Virus record (IMG/VR): IMGVR_UViG_3300006097_000029
Span: 1-27,532 of that record
From: a virus
Taxonomy: Duplodnaviria > Caudoviricetes
Direction: 5' to 3' (one strand)
DNA: 27,532 nt
Part shown: piece after piece, positions 12,104-27,381 of the stretch
Layout of the letters: the number at the start of each line of letters is the position of its first letter
Position numbering within the stretch: the first letter of the stretch is position 1
The notes under the pieces: generated by a model
Told to the model about the DNA's origin: nothing
Seen by the model: only the letters and a program-made list of their open reading frames with translations
Databases searched by the model: none
Made by a program: the position numbers and the translations under genes

Positions 12104-12109
12104 ATAAAG

Positions 12110-12134
12110 AGGAATTAGTAAAATAATGTAGAAT
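12110..12134 (+). promoter_or_regulatory. Sigma-H-like promoter of moron 1
   Basis: AGGAATT-N11-GTAGAAT. Confidence 0.55.
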
Positions 12135-12168
12135 ATCCATATATAAATCTTATGGAAAGGTGATTGTT

Positions 12169-12972: not shown

Positions 12973-13036
12973 CAACATTATAAATGGTTGGTAATAAGAA
13001 ACAATATTATTGAAATAAAAACTAGAAGTCACCTGA

Positions 13037-13061
13037 AGGATTTTTCTTCTAATTGTAGAAA
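13037..13061 (+). promoter_or_regulatory. Sigma-H-like promoter of moron 2
   Basis: AGGATTT-N11-GTAGAAA, same spacing as at 12110. Confidence 0.5.
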
Positions 13062-13080
13062 TAATCCTTGAGGTGATTTT

Positions 13081-14013
13081 TTGTCAAAATATATATTAGG
13101 CTCTCTATTCTTGGTTTCAATTGGTATGTTAATAGGTATTTTTTTTGAGAAGAGAGAGAATCGAACAGCAAAAACTTTTTCTATTTTAGTAGCTATTATA
13201 TTTGCGTTAGCTGTAGCTCCTTTTTTGACTAATTTAATAGTTTATGGACACATTTTAGGATACTCAAAAGAACTACCAAAAAATCCAATTTTCACTGGGA
13301 ATCTCGATGTATGGATAGGTTTTTATGGTAGTTTTTTTGGAGCAATAATTGGGGGAGCAGCTACTTTAGCAGCAATGATTTACAATACAAATAAGTTAAC
13401 AAAGAAGAGTGAAGAGCAACTAAATTTTATAAAAGAAAATGCAAATACAAATGCAGAAATGCAAAAAAAACAAATTAGGCTAGTAAAAGAAAACACTGAT
13501 GAAATAACTAAAAGATATGACAAGCAATTAGAGTTAGCAAATAAACCATATTTAATGCTCTTATTTAATAATAATACTACAGACATGAAAACCAAGAAAT
13601 ATAAGCTAAAAAAATTAGATGATGAAAAAAATAGATATTTAATAGATTTAGACTTGCATATTATTTTTGAGAATATCACAGATAGACCAATAATTGACAT
13701 AGAAATCTACCACTTTGTTGACGGTGATACTAAGTTATATAAATTTTACTTGAAGCCTCTTGGTACTAGAAAAGAATTGATCCCTTTTAAAGTTATTATG
13801 ACTCAGCTTTTTAATAATAGAAATCATTATTTAGGGACTGAAAAGCTCAAAGTAACATACAAATCTATAAATGGAGATATTTATAAGTCTTCCTTTCAAC
13901 TACAATTTCATACAATGATAAAGAATTATAGTGAGAGTTTGGATGAAAAAGGCAATAAAATTATTAAACGTACTGTTGAGACATTAGATATTATTATTAT
14001 GATAGATGAATAA
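13081..14013 (+). CDS. Three-TM membrane protein with soluble C-terminus; moron
   Basis: Hydrophobic segments including WIGFYGSFFGAIIGGAATL. Very AT-rich. Confidence 0.75.
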   Translation: MSKYILGSLFLVSIGMLIGIFFEKRENRTAKTFSILVAIIFALAVAPFLTNLIVYGHILGYSKELPKNPIFTGNLDVWIGFYGSFFGAIIGGAATLAAMIYNTNKLTKKSEEQLNFIKENANTNAEMQKKQIRLVKENTDEITKRYDKQLELANKPYLMLLFNNNTTDMKTKKYKLKKLDDEKNRYLIDLDLHIIFENITDRPIIDIEIYHFVDGDTKLYKFYLKPLGTRKELIPFKVIMTQLFNNRNHYLGTEKLKVTYKSINGDIYKSSFQLQFHTMIKNYSESLDEKGNKIIKRTVETLDIIIMIDE

Positions 14014-14027
14014 AGATAAATAATGAT

Positions 14028-14072
14028 ACTTTACATTCACTTTACATTTCCCCTCAAAATCCATGATAACAT
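14028..14072 (+). promoter_or_regulatory. Late promoter with tandem activator-binding repeat
   Basis: ACTTTACATT x2 (14028-37, 14039-48; 11-bp period), then TGnTAACAT (14064-72), upstream of terS. Confidence 0.6.
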
Positions 14073-14121
14073 AATAGTATGAAACCATAGTAAATCATGG
14101 AGGAGAAGGAGAGGTGGTGTT

Positions 14122-14556
14122 GTGAGTAGAAAACTAACTGTTAAGCAAAAGGCTTTTGTAGACTATTATATAGAGACTGGCAATGCCACAGAAGCTGCCA
14201 GATTAGCAGGATATAGTGAGAATACTGTCTCTGAGATAGGTTATGAGAACCTCAGAAAACCTCATATTAAAATAAAGATAGATGAACGACTAGAGGAACT
14301 AGAATCTGAAAGAATTGCAGATGCTAAAGAGGTTATGCAGTACCTTACCAGTGTTTTAAGAGGTGAGGTTACTGAAGAGACTGTAGTAGTTGAAAATGTA
14401 GGAGACTACATGAGTGAAGCTAAGAAGGTTGAAAAGAAAGCTAGTATTAGAGACAGAAATAAAGCAGCAGAAATGTTAGCTAAACGATATGGTATATTGA
14501 CTGAAAACATCCAGATAAATGATATCCCAGTAATAGTTGATGATATAAGTGAATAA
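14122..14556 (+). CDS. terS: Terminase small subunit
   Basis: LTVKQKAFVDYYIETGNATEAARLAGYS..IGYENLRKP..RNKAAEMLAKRYG. Confidence 0.95.
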   Translation: MSRKLTVKQKAFVDYYIETGNATEAARLAGYSENTVSEIGYENLRKPHIKIKIDERLEELESERIADAKEVMQYLTSVLRGEVTEETVVVENVGDYMSEAKKVEKKASIRDRNKAAEMLAKRYGILTENIQINDIPVIVDDISE

Positions 14557-15847
14557 CAATAACAATAAACAAAATAGAGTAACCCTAAGCTCGGTCATTG
14601 CACCGAGTTTTTTTGATGTCTATAAAGCAATAAGGAGTAAGAAATATACTCATTACTGGTTAAAAGGTGGTAGAGGATCTACTAAATCATCCTTCATAAG
14701 TATTGCACTTATTCATGGAATGATGAGAGACCCAGTAGCTAATGCAGTATGTATCAGGAAAGTTAAAGACACTCTGAGAGAGTCAGTCTATGAACAATTA
14801 TCATGGGCCATAGAAATATTGGGAGTAAAAGATTACTGGAAACCTTCATACAGTCCTCTAAAGTTTACATATAAGCCAACTGGCCAACAGGTTATATTTA
14901 GAGGTGGTAAAGAGCCTAAGAGAGTTAGATCTGTTAAGTTGGCCAGAGGATACTTTAAGTTTATATGGTATGAAGAGCTAGATGAGTTTTATGGAATGGA
15001 AGAAGTAAGGACAATAAATCAGACCTTTATGAGAGGAGGTCCTGAATTTGTTGTCTTTTATTCATATAACCCTCCAAAATCTAAAATGAACTGGGTTAAT
15101 AGTGAAACATTAGTAAAAAGGCCAGATAGATTAGTTCATCATAGTGATTACAGAACAGTTCCTAAGGAATGGTTAGGTAAACCTTTCTTAATTGAAGCAG
15201 AACACCTAAAGAAAACTAAACCAGTTAAATATGAACATGAATATTTAGGAGTGGCCACAGGAACAGGTGGAGAAGTCTTTGATAATGTCTCCTTAAGAGA
15301 AATTACTGATAAAGAAATAGAAAGCTTTGACAGAATATTTAATGGAATTGACTGGGGTTATGCTGATGATCCATTCCATTTCACAAGGCTTCATTATGAT
15401 AAAACCAGGAGAAAGATCCTCATATTTGATGAAATACAAGAAAGAAAACTTAGTAATAGAAGAGCTGCAGAGCTAATCAAACCTAAGTTACATGATATAA
15501 GTGAAATAATAACAGCTGATAGTGCAGAGCCTAAGTCTATTGATGAGATTAGGACATACAATCTAAAGAACATACTACCAGCTAAAAAAGGACCAGGAAG
15601 TGTTGAGCATGGAATGAAGTGGCTTGAGGATTTAGAGGAGATAGTTATAGACCCTGAGAGATGTCCTAAGACAGCAAAAGAGTTTACTAACTATGAACTT
15701 GATAGAGATAAAGAAGGTAACTTTATATCAAGGTATCCAGATAAGAACAATCACAGTATTGACTCTGTTAGGTATGCACTTGAAAGTCAGACTGTTGATT
15801 ATAACTCAGATAGAAGAAACTATTCAGGGAAGGGGGCAAGGAGTTGA
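14549..15847 (+). CDS. terL: PBSX-family terminase large subunit
   Basis: LKGGRGSTKSS Walker A, WYEE Walker B, SYNPP, GIDWGY, ADSAEPKSI, NHSIDSVRYA. Confidence 0.96.
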   Translation: MNNNNNKQNRVTLSSVIAPSFFDVYKAIRSKKYTHYWLKGGRGSTKSSFISIALIHGMMRDPVANAVCIRKVKDTLRESVYEQLSWAIEILGVKDYWKPSYSPLKFTYKPTGQQVIFRGGKEPKRVRSVKLARGYFKFIWYEELDEFYGMEEVRTINQTFMRGGPEFVVFYSYNPPKSKMNWVNSETLVKRPDRLVHHSDYRTVPKEWLGKPFLIEAEHLKKTKPVKYEHEYLGVATGTGGEVFDNVSLREITDKEIESFDRIFNGIDWGYADDPFHFTRLHYDKTRRKILIFDEIQERKLSNRRAAELIKPKLHDISEIITADSAEPKSIDEIRTYNLKNILPAKKGPGSVEHGMKWLEDLEEIVIDPERCPKTAKEFTNYELDRDKEGNFISRYPDKNNHSIDSVRYALESQTVDYNSDRRNYSGKGARS

Positions 15848-17301
15848 TAGATTACACACAAGTTTTATTATCAGAATTACAAGGTGTATATGGAGATTCA
15901 TTGCAAAAAATTAATGAAATCAATACATATTACTCTATATATGATGGTGATCAAGCATGGATAACTGCAGCAGGGCTTGATTATACACCTACTAAAAAGA
16001 TTACTAACATAATCCAAACCCTAATTGATAAAAGAGCAAGGTTTATGTTTGGTAAAGAACCATATTTTGATATAAAGTCTGTTAACCAGGATGAAGGAGA
16101 AGCTACTACATATCAAGACCAGGCTCAAGAGAAAGAAAATCTTTTATATAAAATATTCAAAGAGAACAACTTTCATAGCAAGTTACTAAAAGCTAAAAAG
16201 GACTGTTCAATTGGTGGGAAGGTCGCAATTAAGCTCTGGGGCCACAAAGATTATGGGTTAAAGATAATCTTCGTACCAGCACAAGAATTCTTTGCACAGT
16301 ACAATATAGACGATATAGACCAGCTTGAAAAGGTGGTCTTTCTTTATGCAATGAATGAAGAAACAACTCCAGACAAACAGAGAATTAAGAAGCAAACTTG
16401 GGAGTTATCTGAAGGTAAATGTATCTTAAACGAGTCTACATACAATGGTCATGGAATAAGATTATCAGTTGAATATGAGGACTATAATACAGGGCTAGAC
16501 TTCATTCCAGCACTTATTATTAAAAATGGAGGATTAACAGGAGAGACTGAAGGAAAATCAGATGTACAAAGGTTATGGTCTAATCAAGATGTATATAACA
16601 AATTAACTAGTGATGATGTAGATGCTTTAAAGTTTCAGATGTTTGGCCAAGATGTAGTAACAGATGCTGATGAAAGAAGTCTTAAGAATATTAAAATTGC
16701 TCCAGGGGCAATGATAGACCTACAAACTGACACAGTAAAAGCAAGAGAAGGTAAGCAAGCTCATATGAGCAGGCTTGAAAGCAACTTTTCTTATGGAGAT
16801 AAGTTTGCAGATACTATTAATCGTATTAAAAATGATATGTATGACCAGATGGAAGTGCCAAATGTATCTCTAGAGCAGTTAAAAGGTCTTATGCAGTCAG
16901 GTAAGAGTATGAAAGCTCTATATTGGGGCCTTATAGCAGCATGTGAAGAAGATTGGACTGAATGGGAGCCAAAACTTCAGCAGATGGTTGATTATATCTT
17001 CAAGATGATTGATGTATATAACCTCTATGGAGCAAAAAAGATAGCGAAATATGAAACTTCTTTAACCATACATCATAACTATCCAATTCAAGAAGATGAA
17101 GACGAGAAGAAAAAGATTGATATGGAAGAAGTAGTTAGCGAAGTTAGATCCAGAAAGTCATACATGAAGAAGTGGGGAGAGTATGAAGATATAGATAGTG
17201 AGCTAGAGCAGATTCAAAGAGAAAAGCAGATGATGCAAGACAGTTTCACTCAAGACCTTCTAAACAATATCAATGAGCCAATAGACAAGCTAGAAGAATA
17301 G
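15844..17301 (+). CDS. SPP1-like portal protein
   Basis: 485 aa directly after terL; ARFMFGKEP..SGKSMK..D..SELEQI C-terminus. Confidence 0.88.
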   Translation: MIDYTQVLLSELQGVYGDSLQKINEINTYYSIYDGDQAWITAAGLDYTPTKKITNIIQTLIDKRARFMFGKEPYFDIKSVNQDEGEATTYQDQAQEKENLLYKIFKENNFHSKLLKAKKDCSIGGKVAIKLWGHKDYGLKIIFVPAQEFFAQYNIDDIDQLEKVVFLYAMNEETTPDKQRIKKQTWELSEGKCILNESTYNGHGIRLSVEYEDYNTGLDFIPALIIKNGGLTGETEGKSDVQRLWSNQDVYNKLTSDDVDALKFQMFGQDVVTDADERSLKNIKIAPGAMIDLQTDTVKAREGKQAHMSRLESNFSYGDKFADTINRIKNDMYDQMEVPNVSLEQLKGLMQSGKSMKALYWGLIAACEEDWTEWEPKLQQMVDYIFKMIDVYNLYGAKKIAKYETSLTIHHNYPIQEDEDEKKKIDMEEVVSEVRSRKSYMKKWGEYEDIDSELEQIQREKQMMQDSFTQDLLNNINEPIDKLEE

Positions 17302-17311
17302 GTGATGCTCT

Positions 17312-19039
17312 ATGCAAAACGAGTATCAAAGAATAGCTCTAGCAGCTAGGAGAAATGTATCTAAACTTACTCTGAAGCAGCAAAAGAAAGTTCATAGCAT
17401 TTATGAGAGTGCTATTAACAACCTAATCAATGACATATATAAACATGATGAAAAATCTTTGGCTTCTAGGTGGAAAAATGATTATGTTAAGCAGTTAGAC
17501 AAAGTGTCAAGAAATCTATATAGAGAAATTAGAGAAAGCACTAAAGATGGTATTAGAAAAGGTGCTAAGTTTGGAGCTGATAGTAATAAAGATATACTTA
17601 AGAATATTTTTGATGTAGCTGGTATAGATCCAGGAGATCATTTCACTACAGCTTTCTCACAAGTTCAAGAAGGTGTTATTAAAGATATTATAGCTGGGGA
17701 CATTTATTCAGATGGAAAAACTCTTTCTGAAAGGATATGGAATACTAAAAGTGAATTTGAGAAAGATATCCAGTATGTTATAAGTCAAGGTATAGCAGAG
17801 AAAAAATCAACTATTGAACTTGCTGAAGATCTAGAACAGTTTGTTAAGGATAAAGCACAAAGGAAATCCACCTGGAGAAAGTCTTATCCTCATCTTAAAA
17901 ATAAAACTATTGACTATAATGCTCAAAGATTAGCCAGGACAAGTATTAACCATGCCTATCAGTCAGCTAGTGTTAAGAGCTCTAATATGAACCCTTTTAT
18001 TGAGGGTATAGAGTGGAGAAGTGCATTAATACATGGAAGGACATGTGAACTATGTAGAGAGAGACATGGCCAAGTATTTGATAAAGACAGTGTTCCATTA
18101 GATCATCCTAATGGTTTATGTACAATGCTTCCTTCAATCTCAAAATCAACTGATGAAGTGGCAACTGAGTTAAGAGATTGGGTTGATGGTGGAGAGAACA
18201 AGGTATTAGATGAATGGTATGAAGAATATGGAGATTACTTTGCTGGAGTTAAGAAGCCAAATGATGATATAATTAAAGAAGGAATAAAGAAGGCTAGTGA
18301 AGCTTCAAAAGATGCAAAGAAAACATATAAAAGCACTAAAGAAGCTTTCAATAAGGTTAGTTATAGAGGGATAGACAAAGAGTTTGCTGAAAAGATTGAT
18401 AAGAGATTTTTAGATCTAGCTAATACTTATCCTATAAACACAGAAGAAATAACAATTAAAGCATTGAAGAATAAAAGAAACTTTGGTTCATATTCTAATC
18501 AAGTATATAACAAGGGTAAAAGAAAGCTTGGATATAGAAATCAAATTGTTGTTTCAAGCTATAATAATAGAGATGAAGCTTATGCTAAAGCAGCACATAT
18601 TGCAGAAGCTAAGTATAGGGCTAGCAAAAACATGGCCACATTATCTACTATAGATCATGAATATGCACATGCGATAGATATGATGGCTGTAATGAAAAAG
18701 AACCCAGAACTAAAACCTGAAGCACTAAAGTGGGTTGGTAAAAAATTGAGAAACGAAGATGTTGATGCAATAAATGACATTAATAGAAGGATAAATGAGT
18801 CTCCAGAGAAGTTTTCTGAAAGATTATTTGTATCTTTAGGCAAAGAATTTGAGTTATCAGATGCAAAACTATGGCGTAGGATATACAGTGAATTAGGGGA
18901 TTATGCTACAGAAAACAAGAATGAATTCTTTGCTGAAGGATTCTCAGCATATAGGCATATACCAAAAGAAGAACAAACAGAATTTGTTAAGAAGTTTGGA
19001 GAGCATTTTGAAAAACTATTTGAAGAGGTGTTTAGATAA
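17312..19039 (+). CDS. MuF/gp7-like minor head protein with C-terminal HExxH metalloprotease domain
   Basis: LSERIW..AQRLARTS..RTCELC..PLDHPNGLC MuF core. Extension carries HEYAH and YATENKNEFFAEGF. Confidence 0.88.
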   Translation: MQNEYQRIALAARRNVSKLTLKQQKKVHSIYESAINNLINDIYKHDEKSLASRWKNDYVKQLDKVSRNLYREIRESTKDGIRKGAKFGADSNKDILKNIFDVAGIDPGDHFTTAFSQVQEGVIKDIIAGDIYSDGKTLSERIWNTKSEFEKDIQYVISQGIAEKKSTIELAEDLEQFVKDKAQRKSTWRKSYPHLKNKTIDYNAQRLARTSINHAYQSASVKSSNMNPFIEGIEWRSALIHGRTCELCRERHGQVFDKDSVPLDHPNGLCTMLPSISKSTDEVATELRDWVDGGENKVLDEWYEEYGDYFAGVKKPNDDIIKEGIKKASEASKDAKKTYKSTKEAFNKVSYRGIDKEFAEKIDKRFLDLANTYPINTEEITIKALKNKRNFGSYSNQVYNKGKRKLGYRNQIVVSSYNNRDEAYAKAAHIAEAKYRASKNMATLSTIDHEYAHAIDMMAVMKKNPELKPEALKWVGKKLRNEDVDAINDINRRINESPEKFSERLFVSLGKEFELSDAKLWRRIYSELGDYATENKNEFFAEGFSAYRHIPKEEQTEFVKKFGEHFEKLFEEVFR

Positions 19040-19284
19040 TGGAGCCTTTACATGGTACTAAACTATATAAAGAAAGAATAACGAATCAAGATTATAATAT
19101 GATGATGTCAGAGTTAATGGTGCTAGTGGTCAAGTATGAAGCTGGTGAAGATGTAGACACAGATAGGGTTGAATATATTGGAGAGCTATTTGATATGGCT
19201 GAAGAAGAGGATGACGAATGGCATAATTTTTATAAAGAGTATTTAGAACTGAAAAAAGAAAGAGAAAACGAAGATCATAAGTAA
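19039..19284 (+). CDS. Small acidic protein, candidate immunity/partner of the MuF extension
   Basis: TAATG translational coupling, 81 aa, D/E-rich. Confidence 0.65.
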   Translation: MEPLHGTKLYKERITNQDYNMMMSELMVLVVKYEAGEDVDTDRVEYIGELFDMAEEEDDEWHNFYKEYLELKKERENEDHK

Positions 19285-19310
19285 TTAATTCATAATTGGA
19301 GGTATATATA

Positions 19311-19802
19311 TTGGAATTTGAAGAGCTAAGAGAGTCTTGTTGAGCAAATAATGAAAATTCTACAAGTAATGTAGAAAAAGAGTCTTTATGTCCTGAATGT
19401 AAAGGTGAAACACAAAGAATTAAAACTATAACTGTTAAGCATTTTGTTAAAGATAATCTAGTAAAATCAGTCCATGATGGCAATTATATGGCTTGTCTTG
19501 ATGAGGAATGCGATGTTGTATATTACAGCTTAGAGCAAGATATTGTGTTTAGAAAGAACGACCTCAAAATTCCTGTGTGGTATAAAAAAGATGCGGATCC
19601 TAAATACATATGTTACTGCAGTAAGGTTACAGAAGAGCAAATCATTGATGCAGTTCTTAAAAAAGGTGCTAAAAACATAAAGGATATAATTAGAATTACA
19701 GGAGCAATGGAAAACTGCAACTGTGAAGTTAATAATCCATTAAGCAAGTGTTGTAGCCCATATATTCAAGAAACTATAGATAAAGCATTAAGTAAAAAAT
19801 AG
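19311..19802 (+). CDS. CopZ-N zinc-finger/BFD-like [2Fe-2S] protein with in-frame TGA at codon 11 (candidate selenoprotein, 163 aa)
   Basis: GGAGG RBS (19298-302) and TTG at 19311. MEFEELRESC*ANN..CPEC..TVKH..CLDEECDVVYY..ICYC..CNCEVNNP..KCC is in frame with the ORF-track ORF 19488..19802. Confidence 0.8.
19341..19376 (+). promoter_or_regulatory. Candidate bacterial SECIS element
   Basis: TGA (19341-43), 14 nt, then perfect stem TTCTACA/TGTAGAA with loop AGTAA. Confidence 0.6.
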
Positions 19803-19833
19803 TATAGATTTACAATTTAATAAGTATTTAACC

Positions 19834-19859
19834 AGGACACCCATTGAGGTGTCTTTTTT
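19834..19859 (+). terminator. Intrinsic terminator
   Basis: AGGACACC-CATTGA-GGTGTCTT followed by a T run. Confidence 0.75.
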
Positions 19860-19861
19860 AA

Positions 19862-19930
19862 TGCTCTTTTTAGTATTTATGAGTCAAAACCAAAAGAGTT
19901 CGTGGTGGAGCCGACCACTCAAAAAAGGTC
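19862..19930 (+). ncRNA. Candidate cis-regulatory RNA upstream of the GP20-type scaffold gene
   Basis: GCTCTTTT..AAAAGAGT pairing, hairpin GTGGT-GGAGCCG-ACCAC, then an A-run and GGT able to pair with the loop GCC. Confidence 0.45.
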
Positions 19931-19954
19931 AGAACAAAATATGGAGGGATATTG

Positions 19955-20527
19955 ATGGATTTAAAAGAGTTATTAGGTGAGCAGTTGTTTGATCAAGTAA
20001 GTGACAAGCTAGGAGAACATAAGATAGATATCGTTAGTGATGGTAAGTGGATTCCAGTAGAGAAGTTTAATACTGTGAATCAAGAGAAAAATGAGTACAA
20101 AACTCAAGTTGATGATCTAAACAAGGATTTAGGCAAGCTTCAAGGTCAATTGAAAAACAATGAAGATGCTACTAAAACCATACAAGACTTACAGCAAAAG
20201 ATTAAAGATAAAGATGCTGAGATGACTAAGATTAATAAGTTAAGCACTATTAAATTGGAGGCACTAAAGGCAGAACCTAACGATATAGAGGACATTTTAC
20301 CACATCTAGACACTGAAAAAGTGATAGTTAATGATGATGGTATTACAGGGCTTAAAGAGCAATTAGAGAGCCTAAAAGAAGCTAAACCTTACTTATTTAA
20401 AGAGACTACACCACCTGGTACAGGAGGAAGTAAAGGTGGAGGACCTAAGGGAAAGACAGAAGTAACAAATCAATCAACAGAGGAATTCATGAAAGCAATT
20501 TATGACAATCAAGCAAAAAGAAATTAG
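19955..20527 (+). CDS. Capsid scaffold protein (Phage_GP20-like)
   Basis: MDLKELLGE..DGKWIPVEKFN, coiled coil, GLKEQLESLKEAKPYLF. Confidence 0.88.
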   Translation: MDLKELLGEQLFDQVSDKLGEHKIDIVSDGKWIPVEKFNTVNQEKNEYKTQVDDLNKDLGKLQGQLKNNEDATKTIQDLQQKIKDKDAEMTKINKLSTIKLEALKAEPNDIEDILPHLDTEKVIVNDDGITGLKEQLESLKEAKPYLFKETTPPGTGGSKGGGPKGKTEVTNQSTEEFMKAIYDNQAKRN

Positions 20528-20542
20528 TAGGAGGAATACAGA

Positions 20543-21442
20543 ATGCCAGATACAACTTATTTAAGAGAGAATCTAGTTGGTTTTGTACCAACTGAACAAG
20601 CAGCAGGGATAATGAAAGAGGTAGCAAGAGGATCTTCTGTTCTTAGACTCTCTGATGTGAAGCCTATGAAAAGTGATAAGAAGAAGTTTTCAATAATGAC
20701 AGATGGCCCAGGAGCTTACTGGGTAGGAGAGACAGAGAGAATTCAAACTAGCACAGCATCTTGGATCTTCCCAGAAATGGAAGCTAAGAAGTTAGCAGTT
20801 ATAATCCCAACAACTAAAGAGAAGTTAAATGACACTACTATCAATGTGTTTGGAGAAATGAGACCAGCAATTGCAGAAGCTTTTTATAAAGCGATAGATG
20901 CAGCTTGCTTGTTTGGTACTAACTCTCCATTTGCAAAGTCAATAATCAGTGTAGCTGATGGTGTTGATAATGAAATAGTAGATGGTACTGCAGAAAGCTT
21001 AGATCTAGATGTATCAGATCTTATGGCTTTAATTGAAGATGCAGGGTTAGATGTTAATGGTTTTACAGCTCATTATGGTATCAAAAATAGACTTAGAAAG
21101 CTTAGAGATGCAAATGGTAACCAGCTATTTGTTAGTGGAGTTGATCAAAATGAGTTTTACAACAATCCTATTGAGTTTTCTAGGAATGGAGCATGGGATA
21201 AGACATTAGCAGAACTAATAGCAGGAAACTGGAACTATTCACTAGTTGGAATAAGGCAAGGAATTGAGTATGAAGTATTGAAAGAAGCTACTTTACAATC
21301 TGTTACTATGGGTGATGGACTACCATTATCTTTAGCTGAGAATGACATGATAGCTCTTAAAGCTACTATGAGACTAGGCTTCTTACCAATCAAAGACGAA
21401 GCATTTGCATTGCTAAGACCAACTGGATTTACAATAACTTAA
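20543..21442 (+). CDS. Major capsid protein (HK97 fold)
   Basis: GAYWVGETERI..KKLAVIIP..D..ALKATMRLGF. Confidence 0.92.
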   Translation: MPDTTYLRENLVGFVPTEQAAGIMKEVARGSSVLRLSDVKPMKSDKKKFSIMTDGPGAYWVGETERIQTSTASWIFPEMEAKKLAVIIPTTKEKLNDTTINVFGEMRPAIAEAFYKAIDAACLFGTNSPFAKSIISVADGVDNEIVDGTAESLDLDVSDLMALIEDAGLDVNGFTAHYGIKNRLRKLRDANGNQLFVSGVDQNEFYNNPIEFSRNGAWDKTLAELIAGNWNYSLVGIRQGIEYEVLKEATLQSVTMGDGLPLSLAENDMIALKATMRLGFLPIKDEAFALLRPTGFTIT

Positions 21443-21448
21443 GCTATG

Positions 21449-21472
21449 AAGAGGGGATAATACCCCTCTTTG
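21449..21472 (+). terminator. Hairpin/terminator after the capsid gene
   Basis: AAGAGGGG-ATAATA-CCCCTCTT-T. Confidence 0.65.
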
Positions 21473-21498
21473 ATTCTTATATATAAGGAGCTGAGAGA

Positions 21499-21744
21499 AT
21501 GCCTAAATATAGTAAAGGGAAAAGAGTTATAGAAGCTACTAAAAGAGCTTTTGAAGTTATATATAAGGCTCAAGGCTATAAAGAACACAAAGAAACTGAA
21601 GAAAAAGCTGAAGTAAAACTATCTAGAGAAGAATTCGAAGAGCTTACAGTGCCTGAACTTAAAGACATGGCTAGGGATGCTGATTTAAGTGGCTATTCAA
21701 GTTTGAATAAAGGAGAGCTGATTGACTTATTGGTAGGTGAGTAA
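21499..21744 (+). CDS. Rho N-terminal-like (HEH) domain protein
   Basis: LTVPELKDMARDADLSGYSSLNKGELIDLL. Confidence 0.8.
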   Translation: MPKYSKGKRVIEATKRAFEVIYKAQGYKEHKETEEKAEVKLSREEFEELTVPELKDMARDADLSGYSSLNKGELIDLLVGE

Positions 21745-22015
21745 TGTGACAGATTTAACTAAGCTAAAGGATCTAATTGATGAAGATAACTTCCCTTATT
21801 TTGAAGATGAGTATCTCTTAAATAGAATAGATCAACTAGATGCTGATGAAGATCTATATGATTTAGCTAGAGAACTATGCATTGTTAAGTCAGGTATAGG
21901 AGAAATTAAGCTAGGTGATATTACTATACCTAGTCCTAAAGAACATTTCTTAACATTAGCAGATAGGTTGAGAAAGAACGTGTCAAGAGCAGTAGGTAGA
22001 GCAGATGAATACTAA
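21737..22015 (+). CDS. Head-tail connector/adaptor
   Basis: Position and size; PYFEDE motif. Confidence 0.65.
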   Translation: MSNVTDLTKLKDLIDEDNFPYFEDEYLLNRIDQLDADEDLYDLARELCIVKSGIGEIKLGDITIPSPKEHFLTLADRLRKNVSRAVGRADEY

Positions 22016-22367
22016 GTACTATAAGAAGTATATAGAAAAACTTATTAACTCTAATCCAGCATCTATAGTTTTAACTAGGGAGATTAAAACTGATGATGGT
22101 TATGGAGGACATACCACAGGAACTAAGACAATAACTGCTAGAGTATCAATTTATGAGAAGAAATCAAGAAGAGAAGTAATAACAGAGTCAGGAGTTCACT
22201 ACAGTGGTATTAGGATTTCAAAAGTATTAGCTTCTTTTGATACAGATATTAAAAGTAATGATGAATTTGAATATCAAGGTAATTTGTATAAAGTGATATC
22301 AATTAATCCTTATATGGATGTATGTAAACAAGCAGAGATAGAAGTGATTGGTAAAAATGAAACTTAA
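22005..22367 (+). CDS. Head closure/stopper protein
   Basis: DDGYGG..DIKSNDEF..YKV; position in the module. Confidence 0.65.
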   Translation: MNTKYYKKYIEKLINSNPASIVLTREIKTDDGYGGHTTGTKTITARVSIYEKKSRREVITESGVHYSGIRISKVLASFDTDIKSNDEFEYQGNLYKVISINPYMDVCKQAEIEVIGKNET

Positions 22368-22689
22368 AATGAGAAACAACTTTAATGCTCTTAGTGTTAA
22401 ACACAAATTAAAAGCTGCAGTAGGTCTCTATGCTCACACAGAAGCTAAAAGAATGGAAGCAGAAGCTAAGAATAAAGCTCCCTGGACTGATAGGACTTCA
22501 AACTCTAGGAATTCCATCTTAGGTGATTTCTTTTGGGATAATAACAAAGCAATTATCACTTTGAGTGGAAATACAATGCAGTTTCCTTATTTAGAGTTAG
22601 CTATGGAGAAGAAGTATGCAGTTTTATATCCAACGATAAATAGTAATTCAGCTAAAATTTACAAAGGCTATAAGAAGTTGGTGAAATAA
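22357..22689 (+). CDS. HK97 gp10-like tail completion protein
   Basis: EAEAKNKAPWTDRT..YLELA motif. Confidence 0.7.
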   Translation: MKLKMRNNFNALSVKHKLKAAVGLYAHTEAKRMEAEAKNKAPWTDRTSNSRNSILGDFFWDNNKAIITLSGNTMQFPYLELAMEKKYAVLYPTINSNSAKIYKGYKKLVK

Positions 22690-23036
22690 TGTGGAAAACA
22701 ATATATGAGAAGTTAAAAGCAGATGGATTGAATCCTTATCCACCAGGAAAACACCAAGGCTTATGTAATCAGTCTTATTGTGTAATTAAAGAAGGAAATC
22801 AAATGCCCACCTTTTACACTAATAAGTTAGGGAATAAGCTCATTGATGTAATAATCTTTGTACCTTTGGCAAGTTATGTAGAAATAGAAGGATATAAGAA
22901 AAGTATTATTGATTCGCTTAAAACTATTAAGAGTATTAAAAAGACTGGAAATGAGACTCCAGTAATAGTAGATGATGATAAGCAAGCTTATACACTAAGC
23001 TTAGAATATAAAATAATGAAAAGGTTGGAGGGATAA
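22689..23036 (+). CDS. Tail terminator-like protein
   Basis: Position before the tail tube gene; coupled start. Confidence 0.6.
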   Translation: MWKTIYEKLKADGLNPYPPGKHQGLCNQSYCVIKEGNQMPTFYTNKLGNKLIDVIIFVPLASYVEIEGYKKSIIDSLKTIKSIKKTGNETPVIVDDDKQAYTLSLEYKIMKRLEG

Positions 23037-23039
23037 TGT

Positions 23040-23600
23040 ATGGCTCAAGTAGTAGAATTTGCTCTAGCTAATATAGCAAGAGTAGATATAGTAACAGAGG
23101 AGACTACACCACAAGAGTTTACACTTACAAATGTGGCCACAGAAGCAGAAGCAACAGCTTACATTTCAGAAGGACAACAAGAAACTATGAGGGTTAAGAA
23201 TGTGATAAAAGCACAGAATAACACTGAAGATATAGTTCTTGGTTATGATATTAAGCTAGTATCAGCAACAATGGTTCCTGAAATACTAGCTTTAATTGAT
23301 GGTGGCTCATTAAGATATGATGATATAGAGACAGATAAAATTGTAGGCTATGATGCACCAGTAATAGGACAGGTAGTATCTAGGATTCCTTTTACACTTA
23401 ATGTCTTTACTGAAGAAAAAGATGTTAATGGAGATATTATAGGATATACAAGGTTTCAATACTTGCATTGTAAAGGAACTCCTGCATCTTACACAATGAA
23501 TGAAGGAGAGTTCTTTACTCCTGAATTAGTATGTAGATCTAGGCCAAAATCTGGTGAGACACCTGCAAAAGTTGACTTTTATGATGAACTACCTGCTTAA
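23040..23600 (+). CDS. Major tail (tube) protein
   Basis: 186 aa, acidic and beta-rich, strong RBS, upstream of the chaperone and tape measure genes. Confidence 0.75.
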   Translation: MAQVVEFALANIARVDIVTEETTPQEFTLTNVATEAEATAYISEGQQETMRVKNVIKAQNNTEDIVLGYDIKLVSATMVPEILALIDGGSLRYDDIETDKIVGYDAPVIGQVVSRIPFTLNVFTEEKDVNGDIIGYTRFQYLHCKGTPASYTMNEGEFFTPELVCRSRPKSGETPAKVDFYDELPA

Positions 23601-23617
23601 ATTAGTGGGTAGTTTTT
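23587..23617 (+). terminator. Weak intrinsic terminator after the tail tube gene
   Basis: AACTACCTGCT-TAAATT-AGTGGGTAGTT followed by TTT. Confidence 0.5.
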
Positions 23618-23638
23618 CTGTATATGGGAGGAATGTAA

Positions 23639-24067
23639 ATGAATAAGGTTTTAAGTATTGAAAAACTAAGAGAAATGGCTTTTAACTATATTGAGATACC
23701 TAATTTTAATGGCCAAGGAACTATAACAGTCCAGGTGCAAAAGCCTAGGATAATGGCAATGGCTGCTGAAGGCAAGATACCTAATCCTTTACTTTCAGTA
23801 GCTAGTAAAATGGCAGGGAGTAAAGGAAGTGCTAAGACAGATGAGAATGCTTTTGTAGATAGTTCAAAAGTTTTTGCTTTATACTGTAAAGCCTGCTTAG
23901 TTAATCCTAAATATGATGATATGAAAGATATTATTACAGATGATCAAATGCTGGCCATATTTAATTGGGCTATGGGTGAGGTTAATGAGATAGAACCCTT
24001 TCGTAAAGAGCAAGGAAATGGCTCAAGTGATAATAATGAGCAAGAGGTACAAGGAGAGACCGAGTAA
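23639..24067 (+). CDS. Tail assembly chaperone (G-like)
   Basis: GKIPNPLL motif; lies between the tube and tape measure genes. Confidence 0.8.
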   Translation: MNKVLSIEKLREMAFNYIEIPNFNGQGTITVQVQKPRIMAMAAEGKIPNPLLSVASKMAGSKGSAKTDENAFVDSSKVFALYCKACLVNPKYDDMKDIITDDQMLAIFNWAMGEVNEIEPFRKEQGNGSSDNNEQEVQGETE

Positions 24068-24263
24068 AATTGTTGGGATTGAAGATACTTACTTAGCTTA
24101 CTGTTTTGATGAAGCTGCTTTATATCTAGAAAGTGAAGCTACAGATAGCAAGGGAGTATTTAAACCTAATAAGATAAGGTGGTCTAGTAACCAGCCAAGT
24201 GGAAATAAAGAACTAATAGCATTTATTCAAAAGCAGAATGGAGGTGGTAAGATTGTCATATAA
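24000..24263 (+). CDS. Frameshifted chaperone extension (T-like; G-T fusion of about 207 aa)
   Basis: The +1 frame opens after TAG 23991-93, just before CCC_TTT_CGT. RPSKIVGIEDTYLAYCFDEA. Confidence 0.75.
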   Translation, partial: FVKSKEMAQVIIMSKRYKERPSKIVGIEDTYLAYCFDEAALYLESEATDSKGVFKPNKIRWSSNQPSGNKELIAFIQKQNGGGKIVI

Positions 24264-27036
24264 TGCTGGTACAGTATACAGCTCTATGGTGCTAGATTTA
24301 TCAAAGTATGAGAAGAATTTAACAAAAGCAGAGAAACAAATGCAAGGCTTTGTTAAAAAGATGGAGTCAATGGGTGGCAAGATGGAAAAGGCAGGAAAGA
24401 ATCTTACCACTAAAGTCACTGCTCCGATACTAGCCATAGGTGGTGCAGGTGGTGTAATGGCTGCTGACTTTGAGGAAAGTCTTAATAAAGTTGAAACTAT
24501 TGCAGATACTTCAATAAAACCAATAGAGAAAATTAAAGAAGAGATATTAAATCTATCCGATGATATAGGAGTTTCTTCAAAGGATCTAAACGAAGCTTTG
24601 TATCAAACCATCTCAGCTACAGGAGACACAGCTAATGCAGTATCATATATAGAAATAGCTTCTAAAGCTGCTATTGGTGGTTTTACAGATACTTCAACAG
24701 CAGTAGATGGTCTAACTACAGTTATGAATGCCTATGGATTAGAAGGTTCAGACGCAATGCAAAATGTATCAGATCAAATGTTAATGGCTCAAAACTTTGG
24801 TAAAACCACGTTTGGAGAAATGGCTTCAAGCATAGGAAATGTAATACCAATAGCTTCATCACTCGGAATAACTACAGAAGAGCTATTTGGTTCAGTAGCA
24901 ACCTTAACTAAGAACGGTATTCAGACAAGTCAGGCTATTACAGGACTTAAGGCAGCTTATTCCAATATATTAAAACCAACTACTCAAGCACAAAAAAAAG
25001 CTGTAGAATTAGGAATAGAGTTTAGTGCTGCAGAACTTAAGTCAAAAGGATGGGCTAAGTTCTTAGAAGATATCAGTGAAAAGACTGGTGGCAACTCTGA
25101 AGACATGGCCACTTTGTTTGGTTCTGTAGAAGCTCTCAATAGTGTAACTGTACTAGCTACAACTGGTGCTGAAGACTTTTCAGAAGCTTTAGGTGCTATG
25201 GGAGAGTCAGCTGGAGCTACTGAAAAAGCATTCGGTACTATGGATAAAGGTACTAAAGACTTATTTGAAGATACATTAAATAAGGGCAAGAATACTTTGA
25301 TAGAATTAGCCGATATAGCTTTGCCTTTGGCCAATAAAGCTATAGAAAAAGTAGACGAATGGATTGAGAAGTTTAAAGGGTTAGATGATCAAACAAAAGA
25401 GAATGTAGTTAAGTTTTTAGGATTAGCTGCCGCAATAGGACCTGTTTTAATAATAGGTGGTAAAGTAGCAAAAGCATTCGGTCCTATAATTTCAATATTT
25501 ACCAAACTGAAAGGAATAAGCACTGCTTCAACAGCAGCTACAGGACTTATGTCAGGTAAGTTAGCTGGTTTAGCAACTGTTGCAAAAGGTGCAATAGCAG
25601 CTTTAGGGCCAGCTGCATTAGTAGTTGGTGCAATTACAGTAGCTGGCATAGGTCTATATAAACATTTGCAGAAAGATAGTATTCCAGAGATAGAACTCTT
25701 TGGAGATGCAGTTTCAGAAGCTACTAAAAAAGCTGTTGGTTCATTTTTAGATCTAAATGATAAAGCTACAGTAGCTCTTAATGGAATGAACTGGTCTGGC
25801 CAAGCTGTTACAAGTGAAATGGTAACTGAAATTACAGGTAAGTTTGATACTATGAAGAACCAAGTAGTTACAAAGCTAAAAGAACAGCATAACGAGTCAT
25901 TCAATCAAATGAAAAGCCACTTTGCAGATAGTAGTGCTTTAACTGAGCAAGAAGAACAAGCTATCTTAGAAAAAATGCAAACAAGTCACAGTGAGAGACA
26001 AGCTCAGATTGAAGGATATAATCAGAGAATTAAAGAGATTATGCAAACTGCTTCAAGTGAGAAAAGAGCTTTAACTCAAGCAGAGCAAGAAGAGATTAAC
26101 TCAATACAATCTAAAATGGTTGAGAATGGGATAAAGGTCTTATCAGAAAATGAGTTAGAAGCTAAATCTATTCTAGCAAGAATGAGAATTCAAGCTAGTG
26201 AAATTACAGCTAAGCAAGCTGCTGAAGTAGTTCAAAATAGTGTAGAGCAAAGAGATAAAGCAGTTAGTGCTGCAGAAGAGCAATATAGCGAAACTGTTAA
26301 AAATATAATCAAGCAAAGAGATGAGCTAGGAACTATCTCAGCTGAACAAGCTGATAAGCTAATAGAAGAAGCTACTAGACAAAGAGATGAAGCAGTGGCC
26401 AAAGCTGAAGAGATGCATACTAATATAGTTACAGAAGCAAAAGAGCAAGCTAGTGAGCACATTGATGAAGTCGACTGGGAAACTGGAGAGATATTAAGTA
26501 AATGGGAATCTTTCAAAGCTAAGTTAACTAGAAAATGGGAAGAGTTAAAGACTAATGCATCTGAGAAGTGGGATAGCATTAAAGCATCTATAAGTAACAG
26601 TATGGATAATATTAGATCTAAAATAGATGAAGGAATTAATAAGATTAGAGATTGGAACTCTCAAAGTGTTAAAAGTAAAGTTTTTAGTATAGTTGAGAAA
26701 GTTAAGAAAGTCTTTACAGGTTCAAGTGATAATCAAGGACAAATCATTTCAGTAGGAGCTAATGCTAGAGGTACAAACTACTGGGATGGTGGTTTGACTT
26801 GGGTAGGTGAAGAAGGACCAGAGTTAATTGATTTACCTAAAGCATCTAGAGTTTTTGATACTAATAAATCTATGGGGATGACTCAAAGTGGGCCACCTAT
26901 TGAATATAAAATAGAGAATCACTTTCACATTGGTAGTCTGATAGGTGATGAATATAGTCTTAAGTTACTTGAAAGAAAAATGAGCGGAATTAGAAGGAAT
27001 GAAAGCACTCGTATTGGAGAAGAGGTGTTTGGCTAA
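24253..27036 (+). CDS. Tail tape measure protein (TP901-type core)
   Basis: ADFEESL..GKTTFGEMASSIG..LFGSVEAL, Trp at 11-residue spacing, ARGTNYWDGGLTWVGEEGPEL. Likely TTG start at 24253 after GGAGGTG. Confidence 0.93.
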   Translation: MSYNAGTVYSSMVLDLSKYEKNLTKAEKQMQGFVKKMESMGGKMEKAGKNLTTKVTAPILAIGGAGGVMAADFEESLNKVETIADTSIKPIEKIKEEILNLSDDIGVSSKDLNEALYQTISATGDTANAVSYIEIASKAAIGGFTDTSTAVDGLTTVMNAYGLEGSDAMQNVSDQMLMAQNFGKTTFGEMASSIGNVIPIASSLGITTEELFGSVATLTKNGIQTSQAITGLKAAYSNILKPTTQAQKKAVELGIEFSAAELKSKGWAKFLEDISEKTGGNSEDMATLFGSVEALNSVTVLATTGAEDFSEALGAMGESAGATEKAFGTMDKGTKDLFEDTLNKGKNTLIELADIALPLANKAIEKVDEWIEKFKGLDDQTKENVVKFLGLAAAIGPVLIIGGKVAKAFGPIISIFTKLKGISTASTAATGLMSGKLAGLATVAKGAIAALGPAALVVGAITVAGIGLYKHLQKDSIPEIELFGDAVSEATKKAVGSFLDLNDKATVALNGMNWSGQAVTSEMVTEITGKFDTMKNQVVTKLKEQHNESFNQMKSHFADSSALTEQEEQAILEKMQTSHSERQAQIEGYNQRIKEIMQTASSEKRALTQAEQEEINSIQSKMVENGIKVLSENELEAKSILARMRIQASEITAKQAAEVVQNSVEQRDKAVSAAEEQYSETVKNIIKQRDELGTISAEQADKLIEEATRQRDEAVAKAEEMHTNIVTEAKEQASEHIDEVDWETGEILSKWESFKAKLTRKWEELKTNASEKWDSIKASISNSMDNIRSKIDEGINKIRDWNSQSVKSKVFSIVEKVKKVFTGSSDNQGQIISVGANARGTNYWDGGLTWVGEEGPELIDLPKASRVFDTNKSMGMTQSGPPIEYKIENHFHIGSLIGDEYSLKLLERKMSGIRRNESTRIGEEVFG

Positions 27037-27380
27037 TGAGATTAGGTCTAATTGGAAATGAAGCAGAAATACAAGAACCAGATGGATTTAGCATAGATCC
27101 TTTTGAAATATCTAGAGAAGCTAGAACTGCTAGTGGTCTTTTAGTTAAAGATATTATAGCTGTTAAAAATAGATATACATTGTCATATGAAGGGTTTAAC
27201 CCTGAGGATACAAGTCATATAAAAGATTTATTAATGTCTGGTCAAAAGCTAAGCTTTATATATGATGATTCAGGAGTAGAAGAGCAAGCTTATGTATATA
27301 TAAAGTCTTTTCCAAGAGAGTTATTTGTTTATGACTATGATTACAGTAAGAATATAACTATCACATTAGAGGAAATATAA
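27036..27380 (+). CDS. Distal tail/tail-tip protein
   Basis: RTASGLLVKDIIAVK..LSYEG motif; directly after the tape measure gene. Confidence 0.65.
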   Translation: MRLGLIGNEAEIQEPDGFSIDPFEISREARTASGLLVKDIIAVKNRYTLSYEGFNPEDTSHIKDLLMSGQKLSFIYDDSGVEEQAYVYIKSFPRELFVYDYDYSKNITITLEEI

Positions 27381-27381
27381 A

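Follow-up and report, generated by a model that had tools for sequence, protein, structure and literature searches.

Does a tailed phage carry, in the middle of its head genes, a gene whose in-frame TGA is to be read as selenocysteine (Sec)? The question is raised by a stretch of 27,532 nucleotides (positions 1 to 27,532 of the IMG/VR record IMGVR_UViG_3300006097_000029; Duplodnaviria, Caudoviricetes), called here the window, for which an earlier note made from the letters of the sequence had proposed a phage-borne selenoprotein dependent on the Sec machinery of its host. The computational follow-up reported here shows a full-length gene of the Csac_0668 family, travelling as cargo in the head module of a siphovirus, and makes it likely that its UGA at codon 11 is a Sec codon, to be decoded through the SelB and the tRNA-Sec of the host together with the hairpin located just behind it. 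These statements do not all have the same standing: the gene truly belongs to a known selenoprotein family, its carriage by a phage is the new part, and both Sec insertion and function are predicted.

An interrupted reading frame in a phage head module

The record's own gene call at this place is an open reading frame of 104 aa starting at ATG 19488, which the earlier note had taken for only the 3' part of a longer gene. This was borne out, since a GGAGG and a TTG at 19311 open the same frame 59 codons further upstream, and translation from this TTG to the TAG at 19800-19802 meets one single break, the TGA at 19341-19343. The position of that TGA (codon 11, right after a Cys codon), as well as the 7-bp stem that begins 14 nt behind it and closes a loop with G in its second position, could be verified to the base. 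The 152 codons 3' of the TGA are open and keep all of the conserved Cys ligands. Between the TGA and 19488, neither the sequence nor the list of open reading frames offers an in-frame ATG, GTG or TTG, so that without read-through the CPEC motif would be lost from the product. The locus is therefore an annotation trap, in a sense that the record's own call is a 104-aa fragment, and public homologues are likewise filed in shortened form or with W in the place of Sec. The features of the region are collected in Table 1.

Table 1. Features in and around the predicted selenoprotein gene (positions in the window; "slot" denotes the place that the gene occupies within the head module).
Feature	Position	Strand	Details
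Head morphogenesis/minor head protein gene, 575 aa	17312-19039	+	phrog_1657, E 1.8e-77; upstream edge of the slot
81-aa acidic ORF, directly upstream of the selenoprotein gene	19039-19284	+	from the ORF list
Shine-Dalgarno (SD) sequence GGAGG	19298-19302	+	8-nt spacer to TTG; read from sequence
TTG start codon	19311-19313	+	read from sequence
Predicted selenoprotein gene	19311-19802	+	163 codons + stop TAG (19800-19802); TGA at codon 11 taken as Sec
TGT-TGA, predicted Cys-Sec (CU) dyad	19338-19343	+	Cys 19338-19340; predicted Sec codon 19341-19343
SECIS-type hairpin	19358-19376	+	arms 19358-19364 (TTCTACA) and 19370-19376 (TGTAGAA); loop AGUAA 19365-19369
CPEC, first Cys pair of the zinc-binding zf_CopZ domain	19389-19400	+	C27 and C30, nearly invariant in alignment A1
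BFD-like [2Fe-2S]-binding domain	19605-19724	+	residues 99-138, CYC motif; PF04324
Terminator-like hairpin + T-run	19834-19862	+	8-pair stem, then TTTTTT; 32 nt after the stop codon
Head scaffolding protein gene	19952-20527	+	phrog_194, E 3.7e-41; downstream edge of the slot

The surroundings, which had been read as a phage head module before any search was made, are indeed identified as such by PHROG matches. The genes follow each other in the order terS, terL, portal, head morphogenesis, an 81-aa ORF with no PHROG or Pfam match, the selenoprotein gene, scaffold, major head, tail tube and tape measure, and genes for a repressor, Cro, an antirepressor, RecT and SSB lie upstream of the head module. 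The record, about 64% complete, is a fragment of a temperate-type siphovirus; neither an integrase nor a host flank was found on this linear viral contig of 27.5 kb, and a megablast of positions 12000-27532 against deposited phages returned no near relative. Of the three related phages L094, L095 and L096, the slot was read in L094 and L096, and in both it is occupied by other small genes. A gene of host origin that brings its own SD and a terminator-like hairpin into a variable slot of the late operon resembles phage morons, lysogenic-conversion genes and auxiliary metabolic genes; two terminator-like sites were counted in the scanned 1.2 kb, when 0.3 were expected. Unlike morons, the gene of the window would need a Sec recoding system that is missing from the phage record, and a scan of the upstream + strand for one promoter type (sigma-70-like) found no promoter of its own.

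This last point would fit a gene that has died in transit: captured from a Sec-using bacterium, it would now be stopped by the UGA after 10 codons, the rest being an untranslated relic. Such a fate is improbable, considering that the 152 codons behind the TGA have remained open with each conserved Cys ligand in place, that the product scores above the cut-off of its family profile over the full length, and that the gene agrees with the homologues in its SD, where it starts and how long its N-terminus is (M, 8 residues, C, U). No dataset of RNA containing the stretch of the gene was listed.

Could the TGA instead be a Trp or Gly codon, in a phage or a host with a reassigned code? In many public gene calls of the homologues a W does stand at this column, three of them (P0002, P0003 and P0008) reading 'SCW'. 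Nonetheless, three of the 28 genes of the window, terL among them, end in TGA, the 6547 codons of the window contain just one in-frame TGA, at codon 11 of this gene, and every phage gene is full length under table 11. Furthermore, the genomes with TGA alleles that were tested have selB and tRNA-Sec, and the named genomes that carry such alleles (Clostridium, Tissierella, Finegoldia, Oribacterium and others) belong to table-11 organisms. The W at the column would most simply be due to gene calling with code 4 on short contigs. Given the TGA stops and the single in-frame TGA, a reassigned code was ruled out and keeps practically no probability.

A different concern is the origin of the contig itself, which derives from a metagenome: a TGT or TGC might have turned into TGA by a sequencing error, or a bacterial gene might have been joined to a phage contig during assembly. 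The same sequence is present in contigs of other runs, which argues against both an artefact and an untranslated relic. The best holder of the sequence is run X1, although it may be the sample from which the record itself was obtained. In it, record 2 (19133-19533) joins the upstream ORF to the gene with one difference, at 19168, and record 5 (19537-19944) leads from the gene across the terminator with 0-1 differences. In run X2, records 10 and 11 cover 19295-19598 with 1-2 differences each, the listed one of the two in record 10 (19295-19460) being at 19379. The TGA at 19341-19343 is thus covered by contigs of X1 and X2 with no listed difference. Contigs of higher depth in X2 depart from the window at 19266/19277 and return to it at 19816, as a chimera might produce; these loose ends fit a related phage without the cassette rather than a chimera. 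Altogether, and since a SECIS of the family in perfect register behind the TGA is not what a random error would leave, an artefact of either kind is very improbable. In runs X3 and X4, parts of the stretch are without contig cover.

Family membership and the Sec/Cys column

When the TGA is translated as Sec, the product of 163 aa matches the NCBIfam profile NF045877 ("Csac_0668 family 2Fe-2S cluster-binding (seleno)protein", short name CopZ_Nterm_CU) with 246.1 bits in a profile search, the cut-off being 190, and residues 4-161 align with positions 4-161 of the 161 in the profile, which is to say over its full length. The earlier note had pointed to a clostridial family of this type with seleno members, and the match bears this out. 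It had also compared the Cys pattern to the N-terminal domain of the Archaeoglobus CopZ, a likeness upheld by three matches: Pfam zf_CopZ (PF18423; 71.8 bits, above cut-off), Pfam Fer2_BFD (PF04324; 31.8 bits, E 1.9e-7, above cut-off) and the chain PDB 2hu9_A (E 1.3e-22 over residues 27-153), with which the ligand Cys residues of the two metal sites align. Besides these two, no further domain was found in Pfam. The sequence match to 2hu9 settles the fold. In alignment A1, the residues C101, C103 and C138 and the CC pair at residues 147-148 (C147, C148) are invariant. The aligned solved chain of 2HU9 starts at CPEC, in contrast to the product of the window, which has the CU tail before it (no CU or CC tail is present in that chain). 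The A. fulgidus CopZ additionally possesses a C-terminal heavy-metal-associated domain. As a side observation, the molecule name under which 2HU9 is filed is 'Mercuric transport protein periplasmic component'.

With the Csac_0668 family, which a 2026 review of prokaryotic selenoproteomes lists as a selenoprotein with a CU motif (PMC13188914), the gene of the window shares the spacing of the C-U dyad, the zf_CopZ and BFD domains and the register of the SECIS hairpin. It differs from the family members in its location, these being found on bacterial chromosomes and not in a phage head module, and in the hairpin loop, which an A.A in place of the innermost pair widens to 5 nt. Identity between the phage allele and the homologues found does not exceed 70%. 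A Cys-type sister family, NF047645 (CopZ_Nterm_CC, putative iron-sulfur cluster-binding metallochaperone), has the same domain layout with an N-terminal CC at the place of the CU of the window, but the product of the window scores only 96.3 bits with it, below its cut-off of 100.

Is the TGA column occupied by Sec or Cys in the homologues, as would be expected of a Sec position and not of a simple nonsense mutation? The comparison comprised 94 sources (93 loci and the window), and 83 gene copies could be placed in register. TGA stands at the column in 44 of the 83 (43 C-U and one N-U), and another codon in the remaining 39, 32 of which are C-C; the expected pattern was therefore obtained, Cys predominating among the copies without TGA. 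The C-U dyad lies 16 codons before CPEC in the window, and the column is common to 43 other TGA alleles, found in named genomes that include Clostridium, Tissierella, Finegoldia and Oribacterium, among others. A quick tree was built from the body of the protein, the TGA column being omitted, and in it a branch with SH-aLRT 99 separates 42 Sec rows, together with 4 non-Sec rows, from the rest. The window falls within this Sec-rich side, whereas the Cys alleles occupy the other side and are mostly without the hairpin.

The hairpin behind the TGA codon

Like the SECIS elements of bacteria, the hairpin of the window follows closely on the 3' side of the UGA, within the coding region. Its geometry can be compared with the consensus model used by bSECISearch, as given in the Fig. 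2 legend of the review (PMC13188914). According to this legend, the apical loop has 3-9 nt, the upper stem 4-16 bp and the distance from UGA to loop is 16-37 nt, with a G in loop positions 1-2 that is usually followed by G or U, and with a minimum free energy of -7.5 kcal/mol or lower (PMC13188914). In the window the loop has 5 nt and the stem 7 bp, the loop starts 21 nt after the TGA, and the conserved G, at 19366, is in loop position 2 and followed by U, all of which agrees with the geometry in the legend.

The energy is less clear-cut. The hairpin is rich in A and U and reaches, on its own, only -5.2 to -5.9 kcal/mol, weaker than the value of -7.5 kcal/mol in the legend; the UGA with the following 45-60 nt gives -5.9 to -7.1 kcal/mol, and 19335-19400 gives -9.4 kcal/mol, so that wider folds attain the model value and the outcome depends on the stretch folded. 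This weakness, along with the A.A that stands in the window at the innermost pair of the family helix, would also be compatible with the decay of an element no longer in use. The minimum-energy fold includes the hairpin at 19358-19376, and the fold of 66 nt is overall unexceptional (z = -1.6). Hairpins comparable to this one (perfect 7 bp, loop of 3-9 nt, G in loop positions 1-2, spacing of 16-37 nt) follow 7 of the 686 TGA trinucleotides in any frame on the + strand, when block shuffles have a mean of 2.9 in 596, and from these counts the chance for one given TGA is about 0.5-1%. It is the comparison with the homologues, and not the sequence of the window alone, that carries the argument.

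In that comparison, the mean energy of the region 8-40 nt after the codon is -6.65 kcal/mol in 37 distinct Sec alleles versus -1.93 in 34 distinct non-Sec alleles. Of the helix cells, 85.8% are paired in the Sec alleles versus 50.4% in the non-Sec alleles; in a separate count over the 37 Sec alleles, the proportion is 32-62% if the register is slid, compared to 86.8% in the register of the family. The loop G is found in 35/37 Sec alleles versus 15/34 non-Sec alleles. Both-side, compensatory changes occur in six of the eight pairs (35 cells), which was reached in 0 of 500 shuffles. The pairs 24-42, 27-39 and 30-36 link third codon positions; pair 27-39, which is never unpaired, occurs as UA (22 alleles), CG (10) and UG (2), and pair 30-36 is A-U in the window versus U-A in 27 of 34 distinct alleles, a change on both sides that leaves the stem intact. 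A perfect stem containing such a change speaks against a gene that is carried along untranslated. What had been asked of the hairpin from the start, namely that it be conserved, covary and be tied to the TGA alleles, was thus found, the Cys alleles being largely without it.

A covariance model trained on the other 36 alleles, the window being excluded, recovers 19335-19391 with 57.9 bits (E 7e-12), and since a structure-free model gives 41.0 bits on the same stretch, the structure adds 16.9 bits. The model R1 had a second match in the window, at 20104-20169 within the scaffold gene (19.9 bits; E 0.004 under a rough calibration), which was discarded as chance because it has no in-frame TGA. A scan of 19100-19950 with Rfam, at E up to 10, returned only names of snoRNAs and riboswitches at chance level, far below the gathering scores.

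Host, predicted function and occurrence in viruses

If the UGA is a Sec codon, where would the machinery come from? No tRNA-Sec, nor any other tRNA, was found on the 27.5-kb record, a statement that is limited to the 27.5 kb seen because the record is about 64% complete. Since none of the machinery is in the record, all of it would have to be provided by the host. The portal protein was tried as a guide to that host. Its best relative is 77% identical, those of Wansuia and Tissierella are 74% and 68% identical, and the best among 401 genomes sampled from the order to which Tissierella creatinophila belongs is 73% identical; with best relatives at 73-77%, the approach was rejected as too distant to name a host. 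Nonetheless, selB was above the cut-off in all five genomes with the closest portal relatives found (5/5), in 175 of 201 genomes sampled from this order, and, with tRNA-Sec adjacent, in all four scored genomes with Sec alleles (4/4). The portal relatives, at 77% identity or less, do not identify the host, and its Sec capability is therefore a base-rate argument. About 13% of the sampled order (26/201) is without selB above the cut-off, which would fit an untranslated relic; selB in 5/5 genomes with the nearest portal relatives points in the other direction.

Under the preferred reading, that of a UGA decoded with the help of the host, a ribosome starting from GGAGG/TTG would meet UGA-11 while SelB-GTP-Sec-tRNA(Sec) sits on the hairpin 21 nt downstream; Sec would be inserted and the remaining 152 codons translated. 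In a cell lacking selenium or the Sec machinery, synthesis would end with a peptide of 10 residues. From this we infer that expression is selenium-dependent and needs SelA, SelB, SelD and tRNA-Sec of the host, as the earlier note had proposed. In broader terms, it is rather probable, though with less assurance than for the gene itself, that this is a phage selenoprotein requiring those host factors and recognition of its SECIS, that it confers a selenium-dependent trait, and that temperate phages move selenoprotein genes together with their SECIS elements between Clostridia. If expressed, the gene would be a test system for phage genes that depend on host recoding, with SECIS-SelB compatibility filtering the hosts able to make use of the cargo, and for the spreading of selenoprotein genes by phages.

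How unusual is such a gene in a virus? The glutathione peroxidase homologues of the molluscum contagiosum and fowlpox viruses are selenoproteins of eukaryotic viruses. Their SECIS is in the 3'-UTR, whereas the window has a gene of bacterial type with an in-frame SECIS. For huge phages, tRNA-Sec genes have been predicted, and in the available text of that source only tRNA genes are named, with no selenoprotein gene (PMC10747093). Both cases, the second within the bounds of that text, likewise involve a virus relying on host Sec decoding, and the window differs from the huge phages in being a small siphovirus record without tRNA. A phage-encoded selenoprotein does not appear as a phrase in the roughly 8.4 million papers searched, and the 2026 review contains neither 'phage' nor 'virus' (PMC13188914). 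A tblastn search of 50,697 deposited phage genomes found no homologue, and a viral scan with the single protein as query found no relatives, but an alignment-based scan of IMG/VR revealed a Sec allele on just one further viral contig, L002, which combines a C-U allele and its hairpin with DnaD/DnaC loaders and an integrase. Because curated entries already exist for the family and for its combination of Sec and SECIS, the gene only adds to its members, and the novelty is its location in a phage.

As for its function, the product would be a small metal-handling or redox protein. In an AlphaFold model, residues 1-23, including the Cys-Sec dyad, have a pLDDT below 50, and are read as a flexible tail on the basis of this model. 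Such a tail might capture a soft metal or undergo selenylsulfide cycling beside the [2Fe-2S]/Zn core, and a lysogen or an infected cell might thereby gain a benefit in metal homeostasis or redox balance. In the neighbourhoods of 16 bacterial Sec loci, no conserved partner gene recurs, and because of this the predicted function is drawn from the domain content and from a few mobile-element contexts. The Cys copies of L003 and L005 (mobile elements filed as viral contigs) lie directly 3' of P-type ATPase genes. Among the 16 Sec loci, PadR was seen twice and a TusA/DsrE protein also twice, the latter in two related loci, and one locus has ArsR together with a pyridine-nucleotide disulfide oxidoreductase.

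The predicted selenoprotein gene and its family

An earlier note on this stretch had proposed a phage-carried selenoprotein, and its description of the Shine-Dalgarno sequence, the TTG start, the frame, the TGA and the stem and loop of the hairpin is identical to what is read in the window.

Features of the selenoprotein gene read in the window
Feature	Position	Strand	Remarks
Shine-Dalgarno GGAGG	19298-19302	+	sequence read; 8 nt, then TTG 19311
Selenoprotein frame	TTG 19311 to TAG 19800-19802	+	sole interruption TGA 19341-19343
Hairpin stem TTCTACA/TGTAGAA, loop AGTAA	19358-19364 + 19370-19376	+	begins 14 nt past TGA

The TGA is codon 11 of the frame and is immediately preceded by a TGT, and the 104-aa ORF of the plain ORF list (19488-19802) is the 3' portion of the same frame, 59 codons in. 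Between the TGA and 19488 there is no in-frame ATG, GTG or TTG, so that, unless the TGA is read through, the CPEC motif at 19389-19400 would be left untranslated. With the TGA translated as Sec, the frame gives a product of 163 aa that scores 246.1 bits with NCBIfam NF045877 ("Csac_0668 family 2Fe-2S cluster-binding (seleno)protein"; curated cut-off 190), and the match extends over profile positions 4-161 of 161. In a 2026 review (PMC13188914), this family stands among the known prokaryotic selenoproteins as "CopZ family form 2", with the motif CU. Therefore, the Csac_0668-like label given in the earlier note was right, and the family was already known. The gene is a further member of a known selenoprotein family, and what is new is its carriage by a phage. 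A search of 50,697 deposited phage records gave no homologue, the only Sec alleles (gene copies with TGA at the Sec column) among the IMG/VR matches are those of the window and of a second viral contig, L002, and literature searches over the main text of openly available papers listed none on a bacteriophage selenoprotein gene. Of two related papers, one predicts that huge phages have tRNA-Sec genes, and its passages on these mention no selenoprotein (PMC10747093), and the other reports viral sequences as absent, or nearly so, from other metalloprotein and selenoprotein families in GOS data (PMC9402790).

The product comprises the Pfam domains zf_CopZ and a BFD-like [2Fe-2S] domain, and its sole solved relative is 2hu9_A (E 1.3e-22, residues 27-153). 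The AlphaFold model has a mean pLDDT of 77.6 with a confident core, while residues 1-23, including the C-U dyad, remain below 50, which we read as a probable flexible tail in the model.

Two other readings of the TGA were considered, namely a sense codon in this phage or an error of this record. Regarding the former, TGA is the stop codon of 3 of 28 genes, and that of the selenoprotein gene is the sole in-frame TGA in 6547 codons. Regarding the latter, contigs from two other public sequencing runs cover the site: record 2 of X1 (19133-19533) differs from the window only at 19168, and record 10 of X2 (19295-19460) has two differences, one of them listed, at 19379; neither difference table has a row at 19341-19343, which falls short of full proof of identity. 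X1 may be the source sample of the window, which leaves X2 as the independent run. The TGA stops elsewhere exclude the first reading, and the X1 and X2 contigs carrying the same sequence make the second very improbable.

The Sec column and the hairpin in homologues

The homologue set comprised 13 viral and 80 bacterial loci, whose DNA was translated with TGA as U, and the register of the Sec column was fixed 16 codons upstream of CPxC. This placed 83 gene copies; the remaining sources could not be put in register because the copy was truncated, the anchor motif was missing (one locus) or the protein has no N-terminal tail (six viral loci). To the question raised in the earlier note, whether homologues carry Cys or TGA in this column, the answer is both: TGA in 44 of the 83 (43 C-U and one N-U), from Clostridium, Tissierellaceae, Peptoniphilaceae, Oribacterium, Desulfosporosinus and others, and another codon in 39, of which 32 are C-C. 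A quick tree built on the protein body without the Sec column puts 42 Sec and 4 non-Sec rows on one side of a branch (SH-aLRT 99); the window falls within this side, beside a Tissierellaceae subgroup with support 94 (not starred).

At the Sec site, public protein records of the family frequently contain errors. Many show W (e.g., P0002, P0003 and P0008), probably from code-4 gene calls on short contigs, and some start past the TGA, giving 143-148 aa, as in a Clostridium estertheticum record (P0007 and P0027 are among the flagged entries); the window's own gene call is likewise a 104-aa fragment. Three odd alleles could be variant motifs or decaying copies: L071 has N-U then S-C in place of C-U (column at about 3016-3018), L079 has CCC with a TGA three codons further on, and L093 has a TGA within a disrupted N-terminus.

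In the window itself, the stem is included in the minimum-energy fold, and a perfect 7-bp hairpin of the same type and right spacing follows 7 of the 686 + strand TGAs, against 2.9 of 596 in block shuffles, i.e., a chance of about 1% at a random TGA; the 66-nt fold around the TGA, taken whole, is not exceptional (z = -1.6). Compared with the published bacterial SECIS consensus, as given in the Fig. 2 legend of PMC13188914, the hairpin satisfies the loop, stem, G and spacing rules, and is borderline for the energy rule (-5.2 kcal/mol alone, -9.4 in the wider fold).

The comparison across alleles is more telling. In a gap-free alignment of 37 distinct Sec alleles (A2), 86.8% of the cells of the helix (columns 24-31/35-42) are paired, falling to 32-62% when the partner is slid by 1-3 columns, and both-sided changes occur in six of the eight pairs (35 cells), a covariation reached by 0 of 500 shuffles. 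Three pairs involve third codon positions only, among them 27-39 (U-A in 22 alleles, C-G in 10, U-G in 2, unpaired in none), which indicates a constraint on the RNA rather than on the peptide. With a covariance model trained on the other 36 alleles, the window element reaches 57.9 bits (E about 7e-12), versus 41.0 bits for a structure-free version of the same alignment. The loop G is present in 35/37 Sec and 15/34 non-Sec alleles, the mean hairpin energy 8-40 nt past the codon is -6.65 versus -1.93 kcal/mol, and 85.8% versus 50.4% of helix cells are paired. The hairpin covaries in Sec alleles and is much weaker in non-Sec ones; those non-Sec alleles that have strong hairpins are mostly within or beside Sec lineages.

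Phage setting and host

The window spans the entire record, a linear viral contig estimated as 64% complete. Genes for a CI-like repressor, Cro-like regulators, an antirepressor, YqaJ/RecT, SSB and a DnaD-like protein precede a series that runs from terS, terL and portal through head morphogenesis, the 81-aa ORF and the selenoprotein gene to scaffold, major head protein, tail tube and tape measure. A terminator-like hairpin lies downstream of the selenoprotein gene, and no sigma-70-like promoter was found upstream of it. The slot between head morphogenesis and scaffold is filled by unrelated small genes in two related phages with 57-61% identity in the head-morphogenesis protein. In X2, contigs at depths of 13.6 and 18.7 follow the window sequence as far as 19266/19277 and resume it at 19816, with other sequence between, and the selenoprotein gene is on lower-depth contigs (3.2-5.7). 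This pattern fits a sister phage without the cassette, and suggests a presence/absence polymorphism of 19266-19816 among co-occurring phages. L002 is unrelated to the window (DnaD/DnaC loaders and an integrase); a C-U allele, followed by a hairpin of its own, lies in its early region and, in the quick tree, forms a pair with that of Tissierella creatinophila.

Two unexplained ORFs occupy 12160-14013, just before terS: the first, of 270 aa, has a domain of the copper amine oxidase N-terminal type (PF07833, E 3.8e-9), and the second, of 310 aa, lies in the kilobase where the GC content of the window is lowest (27%) and has weak PHROG matches only, to families of unknown function.

The record contains no tRNA genes, tRNA-Sec included, in its 27.5 kb (about 64% complete). 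The four scored genomes with Sec alleles all have selB above the cut-off and an adjoining tRNA-Sec. Portal relatives reach 77% identity at most. In a sample of 401 genomes from the order of Tissierella, the five genomes with the best portal matches all have selB above the cut-off, as do 175 of 201 genomes sampled from this order; one of the five, G147, has a TGA allele in the subgroup nearest the window. Taken together, these sequence comparisons make a Sec-competent member of the Clostridia the likely host. G147 (Tissierellales, portal 71% identical) has three family paralogues (L102, L103 and L104), of which one has TGA and the other two are free of in-frame stops.

Mobile relatives and possible function

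No conserved neighbour gene was found across 16 bacterial Sec loci. In two elements filed as viral contigs (L003:5165-7632 and L005:3785-8417), one or two P-type (E1-E2) ATPase genes immediately precede the Cys-type copy; both may be integrative elements rather than phages, and that of L003 also encodes a large serine recombinase and restriction-modification genes. Six further viral contigs (L008-L013) encode a zf_CopZ/BFD protein without the CU/CC tail; in the one read, L008 (6560-8417), it directly follows an ABC-transporter ATPase and a UPF0014 permease, between capsid and distal-tail genes, and is a second kind of metal-related cargo of the family in a phage structural module. These transporter contexts, together with the CopZ-N-terminal fold, point to a putative role in metal handling or in a redox relay that would run from the Cys-Sec tail to the [2Fe-2S]/Zn core.

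A near-identical Sec allele with identical upstream residues occurs in L027-L030, L034-L038, L044, L063, L064, L069, L072 and L073, in most of them at about 3001-3480, and forms a tight clade (SH-aLRT 100) across Fenollaria, Anaerococcus, Finegoldia, Peptoniphilus, Oribacterium and a Tissierellaceae MAG. This distribution suggests a mobile element that has spread recently; in L028, DNA methylase fragments lie downstream. The same element has TGT in L026, GGA in L042 and TGC in L046 at the Sec column with the hairpin kept (-4.7 to -7.5 kcal/mol); in these three, Sec was apparently replaced by Cys or Gly not long ago, and the SECIS still persists.
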